DNA of 64,000 bases from Podarcis cretensis (taxonomy: Eukaryota). Below, piece by piece: positions 1 through 63,594 of this stretch. Each line of letters starts with the position of its first letter. The first letter of the stretch is position 1. Made by a program: the position numbers and the translations under genes. The stretch lies in assembly GCA_951804945.1 (NCBI GenBank), contig OX638158.1, positions 41,540,001 to 41,604,000 on the forward strand. Direction: 5' to 3'. The notes below the pieces were generated by a model. It was given only the letters and a program-made list of their open reading frames with translations, made no database searches and was not told the origin of the DNA.

Positions 1-3000
1 GCACTCATCAATATTGTAACAGTTCTTAAGGTAAACTTTGAACTTCTTCCAGTCTTCCTCCACCGTCTCTTTCTCTTGGTCACGGATTCTGCCAGTCATT
101 TCTGCCAGTCCCATAAAGTCAATCACTTTCGTCTGCCATTCTGCCAGTGTGGGAAGTTCTTGTGTCTTCCAATACTTTGCTAGAAGGATCCTTGCTGCTG
201 TAGTGGCGTACATAAAAAAAGTCCTATCCTTCCTTGACACCAATTGGCCGACCATGCCCAAGAGAAATGCCTCTGGTATCTTGTGAAAGGTACATTTAAG
301 TACCTTCTTAATTTCATTATAGATCATTTCCCAGAAGGCTTTAATCTTTGGGCAGGTCCACCAAAGGTGAAAGAAGGTACCTTCAGTCTCATTACATTTC
401 CAGCATTTATTATTGGGCAGATGATAAATCTTTGCAAGCTTGACTGGGGTCATGTACCACCTATAAATCATTTTCATAATATTTTCTCTCAAGGCATTAC
501 ATGCCGTGAATTTAATACCGGTGGTCCATAATTGTTCCCAGTCAGCAAACATAATGTCATGACCAATATCCTGTGCCCATTTAATCATGGCTGATTTAAC
601 TGTCTCATCTATTGTATTCCACTTCAGCAACAAATTATACATTCTTGATACATTCTTAGTATTGGGTTCTAACAATTCTGTTTCCAATTTCGATTTCTCC
701 ACCTGGAAGCCAATTTTCCTGTCTTGTTTGAAGGTTTCCATTATTTGGTAGTAATGGAGCTTTACTTTATTTTCTCAAAACTCTGTAGTTTAAATTCACC
801 GCTTTCTTGTTCTAAAATTTCAGAGTATTTTGGCCATTTGGATTCTATGTTAAGTTTCTTCACCTCCTTAGCCTCCATAGGTGATAACCACCTAGGAGTT
901 TTATTTTCCAACAAATCCTTGTATCGAATCCAAACATTATATAGTGCTTTCCTAACAATATGGTTTTTAAAACCCTTGTGAACTTTAACCTTGTCATACC
1001 ATAAATATGCATGCCAGCCAAACCTATTATCAAATCCTTCCAAGTCCAGAGTGTCTGCATTCTCAAGAAGTAGCCAATCTTTCAACCAGCAGAAAGCTGC
1101 CGATTCATAGTACAGTCTTAAATCCGGCAGGGCAACCCCCCCTCTTTCTTTTGCATCAGTAAGTATCTTAAATTTTATTCTGGGCTTTTTGCCCTGCCAG
1201 ATAAATTTAGATATATCTTTCTGCCACTTCTTGAAACAATCTAGTTTATCCACAATTTGTAATGTCTGAAACAAAAATAACATTCTAGGCAATACATTCA
1301 TTTTGATCACTGCGATTCGGCCTAACAAGGAAAGCTTCAGATTCGACCATATTTCTAGATCTTTCTTTACCTCTGTCCAGCATTTATCATAATTGTCTTT
1401 AAATAAATTCACATTTTTAGATGTCATGTTAATCCCCAAATATTTTACTTTCTTTGCCACCATTAACCCAGTTTCATTTTGGAATCTCTCTCTTTCAACA
1501 TTTGTTAATTTTTTTTCCAAAACTTTAGTTTTTTGTTTGTTCAGCTTGAATCCTGCCACCTGACCAAAGAATTGAATTAACTCTAAAACTCTTTTTGTAC
1601 TAGTGTCTGGCTCTTGTAAAGTCAATACTAGGTCATCTGCAAATGCCTTCAATTTGTAGTGTTTAGCTCCGACCTGAACTCCTTTTACCAGCTGGTCCCC
1701 CCTGATCATATTCAACAAAACCTCCAGGACTGATATAAAAAGTAATGGGGATATTGGGCACCCCTGCCGTGTCCCTTTTTCTATGGAAAGTTCATCAGTA
1801 ACCACGTTATTTACAATTAGCTTTGCCTTTTGTTCAGAATATATTGCACTTATACCATTTTCAAACCTTTGACCTACCCCCATCCCATGGAGATTCTTCT
1901 TCATGAAATTCCAAGAGATATTATCAAAGGCTTTCTCCGCGTCCACAAAGCTTAGGACTGCCTTCGTATTAATATTTACAGTTAGCAGTTCCATAATGTC
2001 AATTATGTTCCTTACATTATCTGATAAGTGTCTTCCTGGGAGAAAGCCTGCCTGGTCCTTATGAATCTCCTCCATTAACACCCTCTTCAGTCTTTTTGCT
2101 AAAATGTCAGCAAATATTTTATAATCCACATTAAGTAGTGACATAGGGCGGTAGTTCTTGATCTGGTTTTTTTCAGTTTCAGTCTTTGGTATAAGTGTGA
2201 TAAATGCTTCTTTCCACGATTCAGGTGCCTTTTTCCCCTCTAATATTTCGTTACAAACCTCCTTAAGCGGCTGTATTAACCATTCTTTCAATGCTTTATA
2301 ATATCTGGAGGTTAGTCCATCTGGTCCTGGAGATTTCCCTAGTTGCATGTTTTGAATGGCACCCTCCATTTCTTGATCTGTTATTTTCTCATTTAAAATC
2401 AACATACTTTGTTGCGAAATTTTTTGTAATCCATATTTCTTAAGAAAATCTTCTATATCTCCTTCGTTTTCCGGCCCTTGTGCATATAATCTCCTGAAAT
2501 AGCTCTGAAAGCAATTGCTGATCTCATTTGGTTTAAAGATGTTCTTTCCATCCACATCCAAGCTTGTGACTGTATTTAATTTCTGTCTCTTCTTCAACTG
2601 CCATGCTAGAAGTTTCCCGCATTTGTCCGCTGATTCAAATGTCCTCTGTCTCATTTGCTTGATTTTCCATTCTATCTCCTGGTTCATCAATTCCATATAT
2701 TGCATCTGATAAAATTTAATTTCTCTCAGAATCTCATGAGACTTTGGTTTAGACCTCAGTTTCTTTTCTCCTTCTTTTATTTTTTCCAGAATCTTATCCT
2801 TCCTTTCATTTTGTTTCTTTCTCTTTAAAGAGTTCTGTTGTATCAGAAAACCTCGCATCACGGCCTTGCTTGCGTCCCAAATCACTCTTTTCTCAACATC
2901 TGTCCTCAGATTTATCTCAAAATAGTCCTTCAAGGTTTTTTGGGCCTTTTTGTAAATCTCCACCTCTCTGAATAGGGTGTCATTCATTCTCCATCTGAAG

Positions 3001-3388
3001 GATCCAGCTGTTGTTAGTTTCATTTCCATCTTCACTGCGTTATGGTCGGAGCATGTCTTTGGGCAGATTTCCACCTTTTTTATCCTTGGAGCCATTCCAC
3101 TAGTAGTCCATATTTGATCTATTCTTGTCCATGTCATTTGTGCCTCTGAAAAGAATGTTCCCTCTCTCTCAAGAGGGTTTCTTGTTCTCCAGATATCAAT
3201 CAGGTCCATGTTTTCAGTCATTTCAAAGAAGGTCTTAGGTAGTCTCCCATCCTTAGAAACCACCTGTCTTTGTGCTTTATCCATATTTGTAGAGACCACG
3301 CCATTCATATCTCCTAATAAGATCACCTTATAATCCAAATAATCCATTAATGTCTCATGCAATTTCTTGTAGAATTCTGCCTTCCCTC
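1..3388 (-). mobile_element. 5'-truncated L1-clade LINE, ORF2 (APE endonuclease C-half plus reverse transcriptase); runs off the window start
   Basis: 866-aa ORF 762..3362 with TRIDQIW/SDH endonuclease motifs and KSPGPDG, NYRPMSLLNVDYK, GTRQGCPISPLLF, AFADD; frameshift near 762 relative to the second copy. Confidence 0.92.
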
Positions 3389-3626
3389 TCGAGGGAGCTG
3401 GCGTACAGCTTCTGTGACCAGCATGACAAAGCCACCTCTGGTAAACCAGAGCAGCACACGGAAATGCCGTTTACCTTCCCGCCGGAGCGGTACCTATTTA
3501 TCTACTTGCACTTTGATGTGCTTTCGAACTTCTAGGTTGGCAGGAGCAGGGACCAAGCAATGGGAGCTCACCCCGTCGCGGGGATTCAAACTGCCGACCT
3601 TCTGATTGGCAAGTCCTAGGCTCTGT
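3389..3626 (-). mobile_element. Sauria-type SINE fragment abutting the L1 5' end
   Basis: Matches the internal part of the other SINE copies (GTGCAAGTAGATAAATAGGTACC core on the minus strand). Confidence 0.85.
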
Positions 3627-4502
3627 AGAGAAGTTATGCAGGCACAACTTTTCTGAACTTGAAAGGGCCTTGAAAGGATGAAGACTATTTGCTTTTCTGC
3701 TGATATTTTTGCTTTTGAAATTAGAAAATTCTGGTGATAGGTTCACATTTACCTGCAGAATCTCTTGATTATTTTTTGTTGTATGCTGAACCTTAAATTC
3801 TACCATCGTCACCATTTTGCCCCACTTACTGTCTTCAAAGTTAATGAAACTGCACCCATTTACGCAATTCATTGTTTTAAGTGTGTTCAAATGTCCATAC
3901 AGAACAAGGTATGAGTAACACAGCTGGGGAACATGTTTATTTTTACATCTGAGGAAATAGTTTTGGTCAGACTCAGTGTGATTCTCAAGTCATGTTAGGG
4001 TGACTCAGGGCTCTGTCCTATCCTAAAAGAGTTTACATAATTTGGTCCAGGTGGTAAAGGTATTTGAGAAATCAAAGGGCAGTCGAGGGGGAGGGATGAG
4101 TCATGTCACTATTTCAGAAAAAGTAACACGTACTGCTGTCAAGTCATTCATAGGCCATCACTCTAAATAGTACATGACTCTCAAAGATAACTGAATAAAA
4201 TAAATGAGGCATGTACCATTGGGATTTTTTAATTTAAAAAAGCATGTTTCATAAAGACCAGTAAAGCCTATATTGTGTAAGTTACCAAAAAGTAAGAGAA
4301 CTGGGCATTTTTAATCAAATGTCTTGCTCATTGCTAAGTGAGCACAAACAAGTAAAATTCCTGTAGATGATTGAAAATCTATTTAAGTTTGTAAACCAAT
4401 ATAGAAAGGAAACAAGATGGCAAACTGAATAAACTGAATAGCCAGCTCTCTTATTGGCATGCACCATATACAGAGTGATTTTAGACTTTTATTTCTACTA
4501 GG

Positions 4503-4620
4503 CAGTGCTTTTATTTTAGAAATAAGGTGCCGATGCTCACAATAAAGTTGTTGCAGTAAGTGTCACGCTTTTAACCAATGCTTTTCTTCTACCCTTGAGT
4601 ACCCCCAGAAAGAAGCACTG
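4503..4620. mobile_element. Short hAT-type MITE related to 34751-35002
   Basis: TIRs CAGTGCTT / AAGCACTG; TSD CTACTAGG / GTACTAGG. Confidence 0.7.
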
Positions 4621-4699
4621 GTACTAGGGGCTATGCCCCTGCCCCTGCTCACCAACCCCTCTGCCATTTCCCCCTTATTAACTGCCTGGAGTTTTGCCG

Positions 4700-5450
4700 G
4701 CACAGATGCATAACGGCTATGGCAGGTGAAGGGAAGGCCACAAGAATGACACAGGAGACTGGTATTGGGTTGAATTATTGCTTACAACTTTATTGATTAC
4801 AGGAAAGAGTAGGTTTGGCTAAGGCATTAGGCATGTATCCCGCCTGCTACCTGATGGAAACCTGGTGGGGTCAAACCTTTGCTGCGAAGTCACCCCCAAC
4901 ATGGATTGGATGCCACAGCCCCACCCAGGCCACTGTTGGGAGAGGTATATGGGCCTGTTGGTCCCCTAGCAGACTCCTGGACAGAGTCACCCCTTCTGGA
5001 CTGCTCTAACGGGCTACCCTTGTTATTAAGGATGCAGCCCAATGCCTTATCCACCCAAGTTGTGATGGTTGCTCTGAGGTAGGAGAAACCTACAAGCCGG
5101 TCCATTTGCTTACAGGAGAAAGGGAGCCCTGAATAGGGCGACTGAATTAACCACAGCAAGGTCCATAGGCAATGTGCCCACTTTCCCCCCCTCCCCACCC
5201 CGGTGGGCCCCTAAAGACTTGGTGGGTGGAAAAATCCCATGGCGATCGGCCAAGAGGGCAGCTGCCACCTGGACAACCCCTTAGATAGGCTGGGTTGAGA
5301 TTGCAGCAGGCACTGCCCACCCTTTCTTGAGTGTCTGACTTGGCTAGAGGTGGGCAGTGCCAGCTATCCCTTTCCCTGGCCGCGCCTGGAAGACAGCAGC
5401 CTCCCTGAACCCACCACTGCCGTGCCATGCTGCAACAGCCACCCACCCGG
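4700..5450 (-). mobile_element. DIRS/LTR-like terminal region, related to 37110-37900
   Basis: Shares ACAACTTTATTG, TTGGCT-AGGCA and GCAGGTGAAGG-GGCCACAA blocks with the second copy; boundaries approximate. Confidence 0.4.
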
Positions 5451-5935
5451 AGTCCCAGGTGAGCAGATACTCCCTTCCTATCCCATGCAGCTACTAAGTT
5501 CGTTATTCCCCTTCACGGCCCCGTTTCGGTCTTCTCTTCTGCAATTCTGCTTTGCACCTTTGCTTTCACCTTCACCCTCATGCCCTCATGCCCTGTTTCC
5601 CTCTGTGCCCCTCCATATGCTTTACTCAAAGCTCTGCTGTTGTTAAAAACCACCATTTTCCTCTCAGTTACCTCCACCCCTGCTTTACTCAAAACTTCTG
5701 CTGTTGTTTTGAACCACCACTCTTCCCCTGACAGGGTCCCTCCCTTCTCACTCTCTTTTGATGGCTGCTGGTGCTGTGCAGCCTGCCTTCTCTTTTGCTC
5801 CCCTGCCCCACCCTGCCCTCATACAAATACAGGATTGTGATGCGGCACGACTGATCCTTCAGTGGTGGACACAGGATGATATAGCCTTGCACGTTTATGT
5901 ATATAGGAGGATGGGTGTATCCATAGGTTTTTCTG

Positions 5936-5963
<28 letters not shown>
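5936..5963 (+). repeat. (GAT)n microsatellite
   Basis: Direct reading. Confidence 0.9.
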
Positions 5964-5966
<3 letters not shown>

Positions 5967-8053
5967 AAATGAGTTGTGAAACACCTCTTGGGTCAGTGAT
6001 GAAACTGATATTGACTTGCAGAGAGAGGATACCAAAATTCATATCATGAAGATTTGTAGACAGGTCCTTGTGACAGTATTCGTTCCCATTTACCTACTGG
6101 CAACATAGAAGAATGGTGCATGGTTTCTGTTCCAGTCATGTCAGTTTCCAGGATATGTGGGAATTTGAGATCCTCTTTTCCCCCTATCTCTAAGAGATAG
6201 TTGGGGTTGGCAGTGCTGATCATCAGCTAGGTTTGGGTCAAGGTGATCTATGATCAAAGCAGCAGGCATGCAGTTTCCTGCTGAGTCTCTTGTTCTCTGG
6301 ATTTGAGCATTGTGTAGCCACAATCACTTCCTCTTCCCCCATGTCAGCTGGGAAAATCTTGAATGAGACCCATTTGTTTGTTGTTCGTAAAATGAAATTG
6401 TGTTGTCAGACACAGAACATGTTTCTAATACATCTGTATACATTTTGAAGCAATTGTCTTGCCAAATGTCCTTTTCAAGATGAACAATAACAGTAAAGCA
6501 CAAAAATCTACTAAAATTAGACTTTCTCCTTCTGTTTACAAAATTCCCATTGAAGTGCAGTATCCTAAGTTTTATGTTTAAATTGCTTGCCATTGTGTAA
6601 GCATTCTATATAAAATAGGTCAGCTTATAGTACTGGCATTTGGACATTATGTTGGCAGAACAAATGTTAATTTTCTATCACTCTGACAGTGCAAAGTAGA
6701 AGGCATGTTGCACTAGATGTTGCATATTAATTGAAAAGGCTTTCATAATGTGCAACATCTGGGTTGTATGGAACGTGGCATGACAATCAAATATAGAAAA
6801 ATAGATCTGTGTTAAATAAATGTAGAACATCCTAGGGCACAAAAGAAAGGACTGTGTGCATGGCTGAAATATTAGTCAAGCCAACTGAGAAATATGATCG
6901 TGCATTGTTTCTAAAATTTATTCAGGCTGATGGGGAAATTCTAGACAAACCCACAAGACAGGATTTGGATGGCATGTTCAACAGCCATTGGCTTAGGTAA
7001 GCATGGCTTGGGAGCAAAAAGGACCAGAAAGGAGCAAACCAGCTTCAAGCTCCTCCCTAGAAGCCCATGTGTTTGTGCAGTTCCAGTAAACCATAGTAGG
7101 GCTTTCTGTGTCATATGAACCAGGCCATTGCCTTTTTAAACCATTGCAAACTTTGTAAAATTATTGCATAAAAGCTCATGATTGCTTCTGTTATCAGACT
7201 CCAATCTCCTTTCTAAAGAGAGCTGTGCACTCCAACAGATGATGATGTCTCAATATGGCAGACGTGATCACTGATGACATTGTAGGGACACCTTCTCTTG
7301 AGGTGTCAGCCTCATCACAGGCTTAATTAACAGATCTGTTCCCATTAAGGGTGCCATACGATTGTCATACTGAGTTTCTCTCTCCTCAAGTTCACAGCTG
7401 TCCACACCTCAGCTTGATGGGTCAATGAAACCAGTAGCCTAATTATTTTGAAGGCAAACGTTTGGAACTCAAAATCTCTGTTCTCAGGCGGGATTTATCT
7501 AAAACAATTCTAAGTCTGTGGATCAAAAAAGATCATAATCACAGAGAGACCTAACCGAGCTGAACACAAAGCAACAATATTTCTGTGCCAGGGTGCTTTT
7601 TCTTTCCCTTTCCCCTCAAAAAGACTGCCTTCTTTTACTGCACATGAAATATGAATTATTATTTGGCAAAAGAATTTGTGCACACGGTAAATGTTTCTCT
7701 TGTTCAGAGGAAGTTTCTTGGCTGGGAAAGAAGAGTGAGGATCACTGTCAGCACCTTTTCACCTTGTCTGAAACCATTTACAATGAGAATATGTAGAAGA
7801 TACCTGCAACCACTTTCACTGTCCTTACCTCCCATCTCCTAGTCTTCATCTGCACTGTGTGCTCTGAGCATTCCTTGGGTAGAACTTTTCTGTGTTATCT
7901 GGATTCCTACTTTTTGCTGTGTCACAGATCATGTGTGCAACTTGTACCTCCATTGAAATCAATGATAAATTAATCACTGAAATTGATTTCACGGGGTCTG
8001 TTCCTAAGCATGACTAAGGCTGCATTTACAGCATGTATTTGAAGCATTATGAT

Positions 8054-57910: not shown

Positions 57911-60118
57911 TGACAGCCACTCCGGGTACTACAGCACCTTCCTTCACCCCTGCCCACACCTCCCTTTGTGTGCCCCTTGCACCCCCTCTATATCTGATAT
58001 GGAGCTCCCTCAACCCTCCAAATCAGATTGCAGGGGGTGCAATGGAAGGAGAAGGAGGAGAAGTTTCATTGTGTGAGCAATTAAACTGGACAGTGCTATT
58101 GTTCACACATCCGAGTGAAGATATGAGAGAGCTACATGCCGCACAGCATCAACATTCAGCCATACACTAGAGAACCCGCACCTCTGTAGGCTGCAATCCT
58201 TGGCACATTTCTCTGGGAGTGAGCCCCATTGAATGCAACTTACTTCCAAATTGGGCTGTACACTTCAAGTAGTGTTCATTGGCCTGCTGATAATATTTAT
58301 GAACCCTAGTGCAGGCATGAATTGCCCCCACAAAATATGTGGGCTGGATACATTTGGTTGAATGAAAGACTTTCCTCCAAACTGCCACATTCTTATGTAA
58401 ATACCTCCTTCCCCACTCTAGAGATGCATTTTGATTGCTCTGCTTCCATAGAATGCTCAAGTCTGGGTGGTCAATGGCCAGAAACTTATTGAGGACATGA
58501 GTCTTGAGCTTTCAGCCCCACATCTACCCAATCCTGACAGTCATATTAAAAATAGCATCAAAATTGCCCTTTGCAAGTCAACACAGCTTAACCCATGTAC
58601 CATTGATTTAATGAACCAGTCAAATTCATTACAAACATTTATAACAAATGCCATTTTTCTAATTCTTTACCAACCTACAGCCAGTAGATAACATAAATTC
58701 AACCAATCATATTTAAGTAAGCAGAAAGTAATTTTGCTAGGTATCAGATTAAATAGAAATAGAAGGAGTGGAATGGGAAAGAATTGTGGCTGAGCCCTGA
58801 GTCTAGGGGCAAAATAACTGTTAATGCGTGATATCGGAACCAAACATGAAGGGAATAAATTGTAGACAAATACATTTTTTAATTTGGCTGTCATTTGTTC
58901 CTAAAAAGAGAATTTCCAGAAGGAATGGGTGGGATTAGACTTCTGACTATGACTCATGAGCTCCTTGTTGCTTCATTTGTTTATTTTAATAATTTGTTGG
59001 CCACATTCTGTTCCAAAGAATTGTACCCGAAGCAGTGTGCTTCCTTCCAATTATGCTTATCCCCATATTTTCTCTATACTTGTTGTCAGGAAGAGACTGA
59101 ATCTTTTTTTTGGGGGGGGGGAGAATGTCATATTTAGCATTTATGGAATGTAAATAGCTGTTGCCTATATGTATTTTGAGCAGTTGAAAAATATGTTTCC
59201 AGAATTTATTCATGTATTTGGTTTTTGATTTACTGCATTTATAGCTTCTCTCTCCCCCCCCCCCGAAGAGCTCAAGACATGCTTGCCCCATGTTTTGTCC
59301 TCCTAACAACCCAGTGAGATTCTTCAGTTTTCTTCTTGTCCTGAGTTGGGATTTGAACTGGAGTCTTCCTAGCCCTAGTCTGACACTCTAACCACCATAC
59401 CATGCTGCCCCCCCTTTTTTACATTTTCTTAGCTAAAAGTACAGAATAAGTGGCACAGCAGAAGGATACTATGATTCTTCCTGATACCAAGAACAAGTGG
59501 GGGCAGGTTTCACGGGAAGAGGTAGATCCTCTTTTCCCAACATGATACCCTCCAGATGTTTCATACAACAATTTCCACCACTCAATGCAGCACAGCCATG
59601 ATAGCTGCTCCTTAAGGGAGTTCTATGAGCTGGATCTGGACCTATTCATACTTATAGTAGAATACTCAAATCAATTCTTTTAAAAGGACTATTCTAAACC
59701 TAAGTCTGGATCCGAGCCAAATCATTTAGTATATAAAATCCAGTGCACTTTTCTTTGACTGCTTTCGTTGAAAATTCAAGCTGTATTTTTTTTCCATTTT
59801 CGATAGAGAAGTGTCTAGATTCCTGTTGTTGTTCTTAGTATATTAATTTAGGAATAGTTTCTTGCTTATGCAGTTCACCCCTGTTCATTGAGGGCTAGTG
59901 GTTTTATCATGCTAAACTGAGCTCAAACTGCTATACTAGACCTTTTAAAAAAATTAGGGGAAGTGTTCTTTGTCCTCGATCCTGTTATCTGTGACTGACC
60001 CATAAGAACAAGTAAGAAACAATTGATTCGAATCTGATGGTTTTCAGTGTGCAAGCCAGCTAACGTTAGCTGGATTTATGTATTTGTTGCAAAGTGTAAT
60101 TCTTTTAAGAACTCTGTA

Positions 60119-60360
60119 CAGTCAAACCCCGGTTCTTAAACTTAATCCGTTCCGGAAGCCCGTTCGGCTTCTGAAACGTTCAACAACCAAGGTGCAGCTT
60201 CCGATTGGTTGCAAGAGCTTCCTGCACTCAAGTAGGAAGCCGCGTCGGACGTTTGGCGTCCAAAAAGCGTTCGAAAACCAGTGCATTTACTTCCAGGTTT
60301 TTGGCATTTGGGAGCCAAAAGGTTCCAAAACGAAGGCGTTCAGGAGCCAAGTTTTGACTG
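60119..60360. mobile_element. Tc1/mariner MITE
   Basis: TA|CAGTCAAAC ... GTTTTGACTG|TA. Confidence 0.78.
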
Positions 60361-60845
60361 TATAAACTTTAAAACAGCAAAGAAGGAATGCAAAATTGGT
60401 GAAAACTGGAATCTTTGGAATGTATTTATAGTCTTCCATTTGTTATGTCTGGCATCACTAAAAATCACCAATGATTAGTTTGTCTAGCTGACAAAGGAAT
60501 TTTTTTCTACAATTCTCCCGTTAATAATTTATTTTTCATATTGTAAAAATATCTATAGACGTGCTTTGTTGGGCTGTTTAAAATGATTAGTTGGTTTGTT
60601 GCAACTTTAACCTTAATAAGTAATGCTAGTCAATAAGTAATGAGTCTAACAAATTACTTATTTAACAAATATTAGTTTTAATGAAAATAATATTTTTACA
60701 ACCCCTTGCTAGGCTGATACACTGTAAGTTGGTACTTAGTTGCCGAGAAGCTTAATGTTGTTCGCTGATATTAATTTTGATAAATGTAAGTTTTGATATA
60801 AAAACACTGTTGACTTCTTATTATTGTCATTATTATTATTTTCAG

Positions 60846-60937
60846 GAAAGATTGGCAGATGAAATAGACAAGCTGAGAGTTGAACTTGACCAATTGAAAA
60901 TAAGAGCAGGTTCTTTAATTGATCCCACGTTGTCAAG
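60846..60937 (+). CDS. PPFIA2: Liprin-alpha-2 coding exon (ERLADEIDKLRVELDQLKIRAGSLIDPTLS-R)
   Basis: tttcag|GAA...TCAAG|gtagcc; 92 nt, ends phase 2. Confidence 0.92.
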
Positions 60938-61651
60938 GTAGCCTAAGAAAACCATAATATTTTCTTAATTTTAATACATTTAAAATCATACTATGTTGAA
61001 AATACTGTTTGCAGTTCACCATCCACCATGCGTTGCAAGCAGCCTTAGAAAATGTTATCATTTTAATCATCGTCATTTTCTAAGGCACTGGGTGAAGTGC
61101 TTCCTTTCATAACTGCCAATGGGAAATCTGCTTTAGGCATTTATAGGTTGTTTTACGTGGGTTTTGAGAAAGTGTTGGCAGGAAGAGGAATGGACAAATA
61201 AGTCCATGATTAAATTCAGATGTGATGAATATTGCATTAGTTCTCCTGATTATAATGCTAGCACATCTGTCCCATTTTCTAATGTTCCTTTCACGTTGCA
61301 GTACCTGTTGCATTAGGGAACTTGTAGCAATTAGTGCTAACGTTCATTCACACCAGTGGTCATGGTGTGACACACAGTGAATGTCACTGGATGAGGTTGA
61401 TGCTCCCCCATTCATGCTTTCACATGTGTGCTTCTGTTTCTCCATTACGTCCCCATGAAAACAGTAGGAAAGAACTGTATGCCAATGTACCACCCCCAAT
61501 TTTGTCCCTTCCATGATTTTCTGGGTTAAGGGGCTGCAAAGTGATTTTTTTCTAGTAACAGGTAGGTAGCCGTGTTGGTCTGCCATAGTCGAAACAATAT
61601 AAAAAAAAATCCTTCCAGTAGCAGCTTAGAGACCAACTAAGTTTGTTCTTG

Positions 61652-61689
61652 GTATGAGCTTTCGTGTGCATGCACACTTCTTCAGATAC
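61652..61689 (-). ncRNA. Minimal type I hammerhead ribozyme motif
   Basis: Reverse complement reads GTATCTGAAGAAGTGTGCATGCACACGAAAGCTCATAC, with a perfect stem II. Confidence 0.72.
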
Positions 61690-62078
61690 ATTGAAACAAA
61701 AGTCACAGAGGGTGGGAAAGGGTATTGCTCAGAAGGTTGGTGGGGATGGGTGGTTGGCTGATAGGTGTGGTAAACCAGTTGACAACTGCAATTGGTCTTA
61801 CAGGAAAAAGCAAGGGGTGAGATGGATTCTTATCTCATTATACATGAGATGGATTTTTATCTCATTATACATGTGGATTCTTCTCTCATTATACATGATA
61901 AAGCTATTTTTAGCCATCTCACCCCTTGCTTTTTCCTGTAAGACCAATTGCAGTCGTTAACAGTCGTCAACAGGTTTACCACACCTATCAGCTAATCACC
62001 CATTCCCACCACCCTTCTGAGCAATACCCCTCCCCACCCTCTCACTATATATAAGGGTCTCGTGACTTCTGTTGCAGT

Positions 62079-62116
62079 GTATCTGAAGAAGAGTGCATGC
62101 ACACGAAAGCTCATAC
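62079..62116 (+). ncRNA. Minimal type I hammerhead ribozyme motif
   Basis: GTAT-CTGAAGA-A-GAGTGCATGCACAC-GAAA-GC-TC-ATAC: stem I GTAT/ATAC, CUGANGA and GAAA cores, UC cleavage site at 62111-62112. Confidence 0.7.
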
Positions 62117-62888
62117 CAAGAACAAACTTAGTTGGTCTCTAAAGAGCTGCTGGAAGGTTCCCCCCCCCCCAAAAAAAAATCAAATAACATGGAAGTGAGC
62201 ACTAAACATGACCATATACCACTGGTTTTCAGGAAATGGCTATTATGTCATGTGACAGCTCACATGCAATTCAGAAATTAACAATTAGGGAAATGGAATA
62301 AACTTCATGTAAATGCAGCCTGTTTCTGATTTGTATGACTTTTATATACAGTCACCCATAAGTCTGCTTCATCTCCATGTTAAGTTTTATTTCAATCTGG
62401 GGGAGGGGGAAAGATCACATTTCAAGTGTATATTTAAGTGTGTCTTTTAAAATGTATCTTCTCTCAAAATACACCCTTGTAAATGATGAAACGTTTGAGC
62501 TGAGAATTATGCAGAAACATTTGAGAAGTGCAAAAGCTAGTGGGAAACTTAAGCATCATCCAAGAGTTGTTCATTTGGTCTTGAATCCTGGTTGATTTCA
62601 ACCCAAGTCTTGCCAGGTCAAGTTTCATTGCTCTCTCCACACCACACTGACTATCAGGAAAACGTGTCATTTTGAGTTTTACTGATTATTTCTAGTTTCC
62701 ATTCAGATACATCACAGAGCTTTATTACCCTCGTAGCATTTCAGGAAACCACCCAAAATTGTTTTCTTTATGTATAGAATGAGATTTCATAGGATGAACG
62801 TCTCTGCACATTGTAAAACAGTTAATAAATTGTTGATTTTTTTTTTTTTTACGGTTTGGCTTATTCGTGTGCTGCAACTGTTTTTCAG

Positions 62889-63024
62889 ACCACATCTTGA
62901 TTCATCAGCAGAGCTGAGGTACTCTGTGAGCTCCCTAGTTGATAGCCAACCAGATTATAGGTCTACTAAGGTGATAAGAAGACCTAGAAGAGGCCGTATG
63001 GGAATCCGGAGAGACGAACCAAAG
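62889..63024 (+). CDS. PPFIA2: Liprin-alpha-2 coding exon (PHLDSSAELRYSVSSLVDSQPDYRSTKVIRRPRRGRMGIRRDEPK)
   Basis: tttcag|A CCA...AAG|gtttat; 136 nt; completes the split Arg codon of the previous exon. Confidence 0.93.
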
Positions 63025-63373: not shown

Positions 63374-63594
63374 GTGAAATCCCTTGGAGATCATGAATGG
63401 AGCAGAAGTCAACCGATGGGTGTTCTGAGCAGCCATCATTTTGAGAGTGACACTGAAATGTCTGACATTGATGATGATGACAGAGATACAATATTTAGCT
63501 CCATGGATCTTCTGTCGCCAAGTGGACATTCTGATGCCCAAACCCTTGCTATGATGCTTCAGGAACAACTGGATGCAATCAACAAAGAAATCAG
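63374..63594 (+). CDS. PPFIA2: Liprin-alpha-2 coding exon (VKSLGDHEWSRSQPMG...AMMLQEQLDAINKEI-R)
   Basis: aattag|GTG...ATCAG|gtactt; 221 nt; contains the conserved DAQTLAMMLQEQLDAINKEIR motif. Confidence 0.95.

Follow-up and report, generated by a model that had tools for sequence, protein, structure and literature searches.

Inside an intron of a liprin-alpha-2 (PPFIA2)-like gene of Podarcis cretensis, two minimal hammerhead ribozyme motifs face each other on opposite strands of a near-palindrome. The initial annotation of this locus saw in it a non-coding, non-autonomous family of ribozyme-bearing retroelements and a potentially damaging ribozyme silenced by its own antisense arm. The question is therefore whether the fold-back is a mobile unit, a structure kept by selection, or the trace of a single insertion. 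Analysis of the window (the whole 64,000-nucleotide stretch of DNA containing the locus) and of the surrounding genome argues strongly for the last of these: the locus very probably goes back to one unique insertion, in which two 5ʹ-truncated 3ʹ ends (pLTRs) of a Penelope-like element (PLE) lie head-to-head. A single event of target-primed reverse transcription likely produced it, with likely neutral decay afterwards.

Structure of the locus

As had been proposed, the fold-back occupies the intron between two PPFIA2 coding exons. Both have GT/AG boundaries and an open spliced frame, and the exon after them matches a liprin-alpha-2 peptide (PDB 6iuh_C, E 2.6e-9), so that the host is taken as a PPFIA2-like gene. 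The features are as follows.

60846 to 60937, + strand: upstream coding exon of the PPFIA2-like host gene
61550 to 61825, - strand: left arm, an inverted, 5ʹ-truncated pLTR copy of the PLE with a tail (blastn to intact elements L141 and L143; alignment with 70 copies)
61550 to 61586, - strand: left-arm tail, made up of codons 1 to 12 of the ORF (MADQHGYLPVTR; start of the intact ORF, MADQHGYLSVTG), from intact-element mapping
61652 to 61689, - strand: minimal type I hammerhead motif, antisense to PPFIA2, identical to the commonest family form (regex)
61824 to 61897, + strand: junction filler, a 23-nt unit repeated three times (61824, 61851, 61875), corresponding to the codons that close the GIY-YIG ORF (intact-element mapping)
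61874 to 62157, + strand: right arm, a 5ʹ-truncated 3ʹ end (ORF end and pLTR) of the PLE without a tail, 90% identical to intact elements over 284 nt
62048 to 62055, + strand: TATA-like box of the family pLTR, a putative promoter element (family alignment)
62079 to 62116, + strand: minimal type I hammerhead motif in the sense orientation of PPFIA2, with C62112 as the last nucleotide before the predicted cut (regex, alignment, folding)
62889 to 63024, + strand: host-gene coding exon on the downstream side
63374 to 63594, + strand: next coding exon, matching 6iuh_C

The inverted arms (61611-61825 and 61914-62157) pair in three blocks (96, 82 and 48 nt; 90-96% complementarity), and folding of the region gives -396 kcal/mol (z -37 relative to 20 shuffles), which supports the near-palindrome of about 550 bp annotated at 61611-62157. 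The left end of the element, previously placed at 61555, is moved to about 61550 by blastn against intact elements and by the survey of fold-back ends described below. A 353-nt contig from a same-species sequencing run, possibly of the source sample, spans the left junction with 0 differences, and on the left flank family ends cluster at 61550-61558 and 61602 in contigs of all four sequencing runs (4/4); among the contigs listed, none was specific to this locus in a relative. Because a C11-A9 tract adjoins the right end, the true right edge is uncertain. At the centre, the third 23-nt unit shares its register with the right arm and encodes GFFSHYT followed by a stop at 61896-61898. The left arm differs from the older-subfamily majority by 12 substitutions in 213 columns; the right arm is 94-96% identical to the best older-subfamily copies among 40 scored of 1,870 first-look genome candidates.

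No target-site duplication (TSD) was found for the window copy, the longest direct match between its flanks being 5 nt; in place of a direct duplication, 61540-61550 and 62171-62180 form a 10-nt A/T-rich inverted match. The left insertion end also contains, at 61545-61567, a short acceptor-like site with a donor-like site 6 nt on. The 6-nt micro-exon that these might define would be in frame, although this is speculative and the pyrimidine tract is weak. The left flank itself (61200-61530) is moderately repeated, with many contigs and joints at 85-90%, and represents another old repeat, while a separate short MITE-like element with 32-nt inverted ends (72% complementary) lies upstream of the first listed exon, at 60110-60369.

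The hammerhead motifs

Over the whole 64 kb, a generic regex for minimal type I motifs, with stem I set at 4 bp, returned exactly two matches, 62079-62116 (+) and 61652-61689 (-), which are the two opposed motifs that had been annotated; a motif pattern gave 0 chance matches in 100 shuffles. Both motifs consist of stem I (GTAT/ATAC), CUGAAGA, an extra A, a 6-bp stem II, GAAA, GC and UC, and contain the CUGANGA, GAAA and UH core with stems I and II that defines the minimal type I class. Rfam models miss these motifs: no hammerhead family was among the 15 matches at E<=10. MIR2646 and the other miRNA matches were dismissed, being below gathering score and reflecting merely the long hairpin.

For the minimal hammerheads of metazoan PLEs, paired motifs on opposite strands with 100-700 bp between them have been described, and so have motifs in turtle and snakes (PMC4209133). 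The window motifs share with them a 4-bp stem I, a long stem II, an extra nucleotide that separates position 9 from 10.1, the G10.1-C11.1 pair and a palindromic remnant of stem III. They differ from the motifs of PMC4209133 in sequence that is specific to the family and in a stem II mismatch private to the + copy. This mismatch is a T>A change at 62092 that breaks pair 10.2-11.2, beside G10.1-C11.1; it occurs in 0/70 family copies and weakens the predicted fold of the + motif from -6.0 to -0.8 kcal/mol (stem III outside the model). The 38-mer of the - motif, on the other hand, is identical in 40/70 copies.

The annotation had also noted a TATA box about 30 nt upstream of the + motif that is absent from the other arm. 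Indeed, TATATAAG begins at 62048, 31 nt upstream of the motif, and the left arm lacks TATATAAG at a 19-bp gap. The idea that the TATA sequence was inserted specifically into the right arm was rejected: it is family sequence, followed in the family by an Inr-like TCAGT (62074-62078, with a private T>G in the window copy). The left-arm deletion is found in 0/66 copies and has a single genome match, and a second private deletion of 10 bp lies in the same arm. As aligned, the asymmetry is a private deletion and no design feature.

Similar motifs occur elsewhere in the genome. In 19 other hammerhead-like matches, stem II pairs at 63 of 95 positions (shuffle mean 39.7, sd 4.7; 0/5000), a count that comes from a search pattern excluding the family's 10.2/11.2 bases and from mutually related matches, one of them a family member. 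Their majority stem II is GAGTTC/GAA[CT][CT]C as against GTGTGC/GCACAC in the family, and pairing is kept with a different sequence in these related motifs. At loci L065-L081 and L083 such motifs are older, minimal-hammerhead-like and built on another 6-bp stem II, L066 and L080 being a separate type. A tblastn search of the 19 loci with the family ORF found nothing.

The parent element

The proposed PLE origin is supported by the arms themselves, which map onto the pLTR and ORF ends of intact elements. Longer family copies extend 5ʹ into a GIY-YIG frame ending in GFLSHYT and a stop, and stepwise upstream walking from these copies led to intact elements with 910-aa ORFs, the autonomous RT and GIY-YIG partner that the annotation had suggested looking for. 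In the tandem L141 (G000:C14:51054501-51064500, positions 977-7893), two intact 910-aa ORFs recur with a 3,011-bp period at 99.97% identity, providing evidence of very recent family activity. L143 is laid out as inverted pLTR, direct pLTR, ORF and pLTR. The pLTRs thus derive from tandem or partial-tandem organisation, as seen in the 3,011-bp units of L141 and the direct pLTRs of L143.

The single ORF encodes RT together with a GIY-YIG domain at the C terminus (RVT_1 at 438-586, E 9e-12; GIY-YIG at 808-854, at the cut-off), carries DKG and YIDD motifs, and has a CX4CxxC linker between RT and endonuclease (CNKPRCQLC at residue 770). A CX2-5CxxC linker marks the Neptune clade and is common to Nematis (PMC8557442), and on this linker the family is classed as Neptune-type. 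Its ATG lies 64 nt after the predicted hammerhead cleavage site; an ATG in the stem II loop was rejected as ORF start, the frame closing after nine codons in intact elements. No name for this PLE was found in the literature searched. Judged by sequence, the window element is the truncated 3ʹ end of an autonomous, RT- and GIY-YIG-encoding Neptune-type PLE, of whose ORF the window copy retains only the first and last codons; the family is not non-coding.

A close comparison among reptiles is Poseidon_Ac (PAc) of Anolis carolinensis (PMC11167929), which likewise forms tandem arrays, carries a hammerhead at the pLTR-ORF junction and has two classes of 3ʹ end, with and without a tail. Unlike PAc, the window family has the CX4CxxC linker of the Neptune/Nematis type, and its ATG comes after the point of cleavage; in PAc the start of the ORF falls within the hammerhead (PMC11167929). 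In the window family, the order of the TATA/Inr-like site, the motif and, 64 nt on, the ATG means that a tandem transcript would carry two motifs 3 kb apart, and these could dimerise.

Origin of the fold-back

Fold-backs are a regular product of this family. A 30-nt family motif has 7,956 exact matches in the genome (control, 0). Among the first 100 matches listed, covering 8.3 Mb of one contig, 19 head-to-head ('-+') neighbours within 3.5 kb were counted against one tail-to-tail ('+-') pair, where about four close pairs in any orientation were expected; by extrapolation, there may be ~1,500 fold-backs genome-wide. Opposed hammerheads are present in 12/57 sampled family loci, and at 21/57 an inverted family piece adjoins the 5ʹ truncation point. 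Both ends could be seen in 23 fold-backs: the tail is confined to one arm in 20 of them, and direct repeats of 11-14 bp flank 17. A few 'tails' in this survey are ORF continuations, and three of its loci are possibly duplicates. Three fold-backs on C2 (L130, L131, L133) have near-identical flanks, two of them opposed 30 kb apart, and probably reflect a duplication or a nested event.

Complex insertions of EN+ PLEs, composed of an inverted 5ʹ-truncated copy, a pLTR, a one-sided tail of 30-40 bp and a TSD, have been described (PMC8557442; Pen2a_Av in PMC3846280), and the inverted 5ʹ-truncated copy with a one-sided tail is called typical in the same sources. The window copy has both of these traits, its tail being confined to the left arm. 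It further resembles such insertions in its head-to-head inverted pLTR, its strong 5ʹ truncation, a tail that reaches into the ORF start, and a pLTR with TATA and an Inr-like site. It departs from them in that both arms are reduced to pLTR, the ORF end is triplicated at the junction and a TSD, which is optional in PLEs, was not found. The locus is thus a new copy of an already described insertion type, opposed hammerheads and inverted pLTRs both having been published.

In the proposed mechanism, the element endonuclease would nick both target strands, and each nicked end would prime copying of element RNA, beginning in one case at the tail site, within the start of the ORF, and in the other at a T-tract site. 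Both cDNAs would stop early and then be joined, slippage at the ORF end producing the triple repeat. Two-site priming is borrowed by analogy from Anolis PAc, a Poseidon element that cuts and extends both strands and whose reverse transcription starts from two sites matching the tail and no-tail ends (PMC11167929). An account proposed in PMC3846280 has the fold-back made instead by self-priming on an antisense template, and the present data do not separate this from two-ended priming.

A second insertion beside an older one could also have made the palindrome. The missing TSD and the divergence of about 8% between the arms would fit such a history, as would the cutting of AT-rich DNA by the PAc endonuclease close to the ORF-pLTR junction of PAc itself (PMC11167929). 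Both arms, however, carry diagnostic bases of the older subfamily and a common variant present in 0/64 other copies, which points to one source; the tail on one arm, as in 20/23 fold-backs, and the strong bias for '-+' over '+-' likewise speak against two independent events, which are highly improbable.

Alternatively, the fold-back could belong to a retrozyme- or MITE-like family that carries ribozymes, is mobile without being autonomous, and relies on the PLE for movement in trans. Fold-backs are abundant in the genome, PLE pLTRs can act in trans (PMC3846280), and animal retrozymes derived from pLTRs have been reported (bioRxiv 2026.07.22.740005). Moreover, another junction is shared by L003 and L012 (C17, 1.7 Mb apart; 647 nt at 95%) within different flanks; it matches only these two loci genome-wide, and may reflect gene conversion or else a fold-back that was, as a rare event, copied again. 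Against this, the window junction at <=1 mismatch has one match in 1.5 Gb and the TATA deletion also has one, making the window copy a one-off with no mobile fold-back family behind it, and spans and junctions differ from one fold-back to the next. A fold-back subfamily was therefore rejected, with one match for the window junction and two for that of L003/L012. The non-LTR retrozymes are similarly short, pLTR-derived and hammerhead-bearing, but they are direct tandem repeats amplified as a unit (bioRxiv 2026.07.22.740005), whereas the window holds an inverted one-off pair with ORF-start and ORF-end codons in its arms. Mobility as a unit is largely refuted for this copy and extremely unlikely, and the annotated non-coding, non-autonomous family gives way to the end of a coding, autonomous PLE.

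Decay, sequestration and ribozyme activity

After this presumed single event, the insertion has likely decayed neutrally. Two points stand against the preferred reading: the window copy has no recognisable TSD, unlike the 17/23 fold-backs with a flanking direct repeat, and its arms diverge by 3.7% and 5.6% from the older-subfamily majority, further than most sampled older copies (0.9-5.4%), although those were chosen as best matches. Within the PLE itself the hammerhead is probably meaningful: older and younger subfamilies differ at 0/38 motif positions and at 15/180 and 3/39 flanking positions (18/219), and young copies vary by 0.4% inside the hammerhead versus 1.6-1.8% outside. In older copies the motif is no better kept (2.8% vs 2.3-2.7% in the flanks); these counts come from non-independent copies and, for the older set, from copies chosen by similarity to the window.

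In PPFIA2 pre-mRNA the arms would zip into a duplex of ~230 bp, burying the sense hammerhead. This part of the annotated self-silencing holds as a prediction, the + motif being paired to the left arm in the full fold-back with a mean pairing probability of 0.97. The modelled sequestration is likely, and it would be automatic and redundant. Any head-to-head pair reads antisense then sense from either direction, so sequestration follows from geometry. The + motif would also cleave poorly anyway; the insertion is thus likely without ribozyme effect and removed with the intron, and both window motifs are likely inactive here. The damage that was to be silenced had been overstated, given the stem II mismatch, the lone motif and the geometry-driven antisense arm.

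Selection could still have favoured the fold-back, its antisense arm silencing a hammerhead that cuts PPFIA2 pre-mRNA. The predicted 97% pairing and the conservation of the hammerhead in active lineages lend this some support. So does the orientation of family pieces in 344 kb around the host gene, a region that presumably takes in its first coding exon as well as a late one, both placed by motif: the only sense piece lies inside the fold-back and the other four are antisense, although five pieces are too few for an orientation bias. Cleavage within an intron need not prevent splicing. Fold-backs arise frequently regardless, and the + motif carries its private mismatch and has no same-strand hammerhead partner in the 344 kb. 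Furthermore, single minimal hammerheads gave no cleavage and dimers cleaved weakly (PMC4209133), and cleavage by the Anolis hammerhead needed the element's protein (PMC11167929). Selection for self-silencing at this locus is accordingly very unlikely, and neutral decay of a single insertion remains the preferred reading.

Significance

Taken alone, the locus is of little importance, being a single decayed stub out of thousands, and its fold-back shape is a known and common by-product of PLE insertion. The family is of wider interest: it has been active very recently, has intact tandem masters and ~8,000 motif copies, and shows regular TSDs of 11-14 bp as well as tails on one side. With these traits it could serve for testing two-site priming and what PLE hammerheads do in vivo. 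Additionally, its many fold-backs are a predicted source of long intronic dsRNA, which could serve as editing or siRNA substrates; Penelope inverted repeats yielded siRNAs in Drosophila (PMC3681739). A broader proposal, that head-to-head PLE insertions silence the hammerhead they carry, whatever the host gene, and that this insertion is a tolerated, self-muted copy, is improbable. Were minimal hammerheads to cut host pre-mRNA in vivo, solo sense intronic copies would be purged and fold-backs spared, and the ~8,000 motif copies and ~1,500 extrapolated fold-backs would offer a population-scale test of PLE hammerhead activity in vivo.
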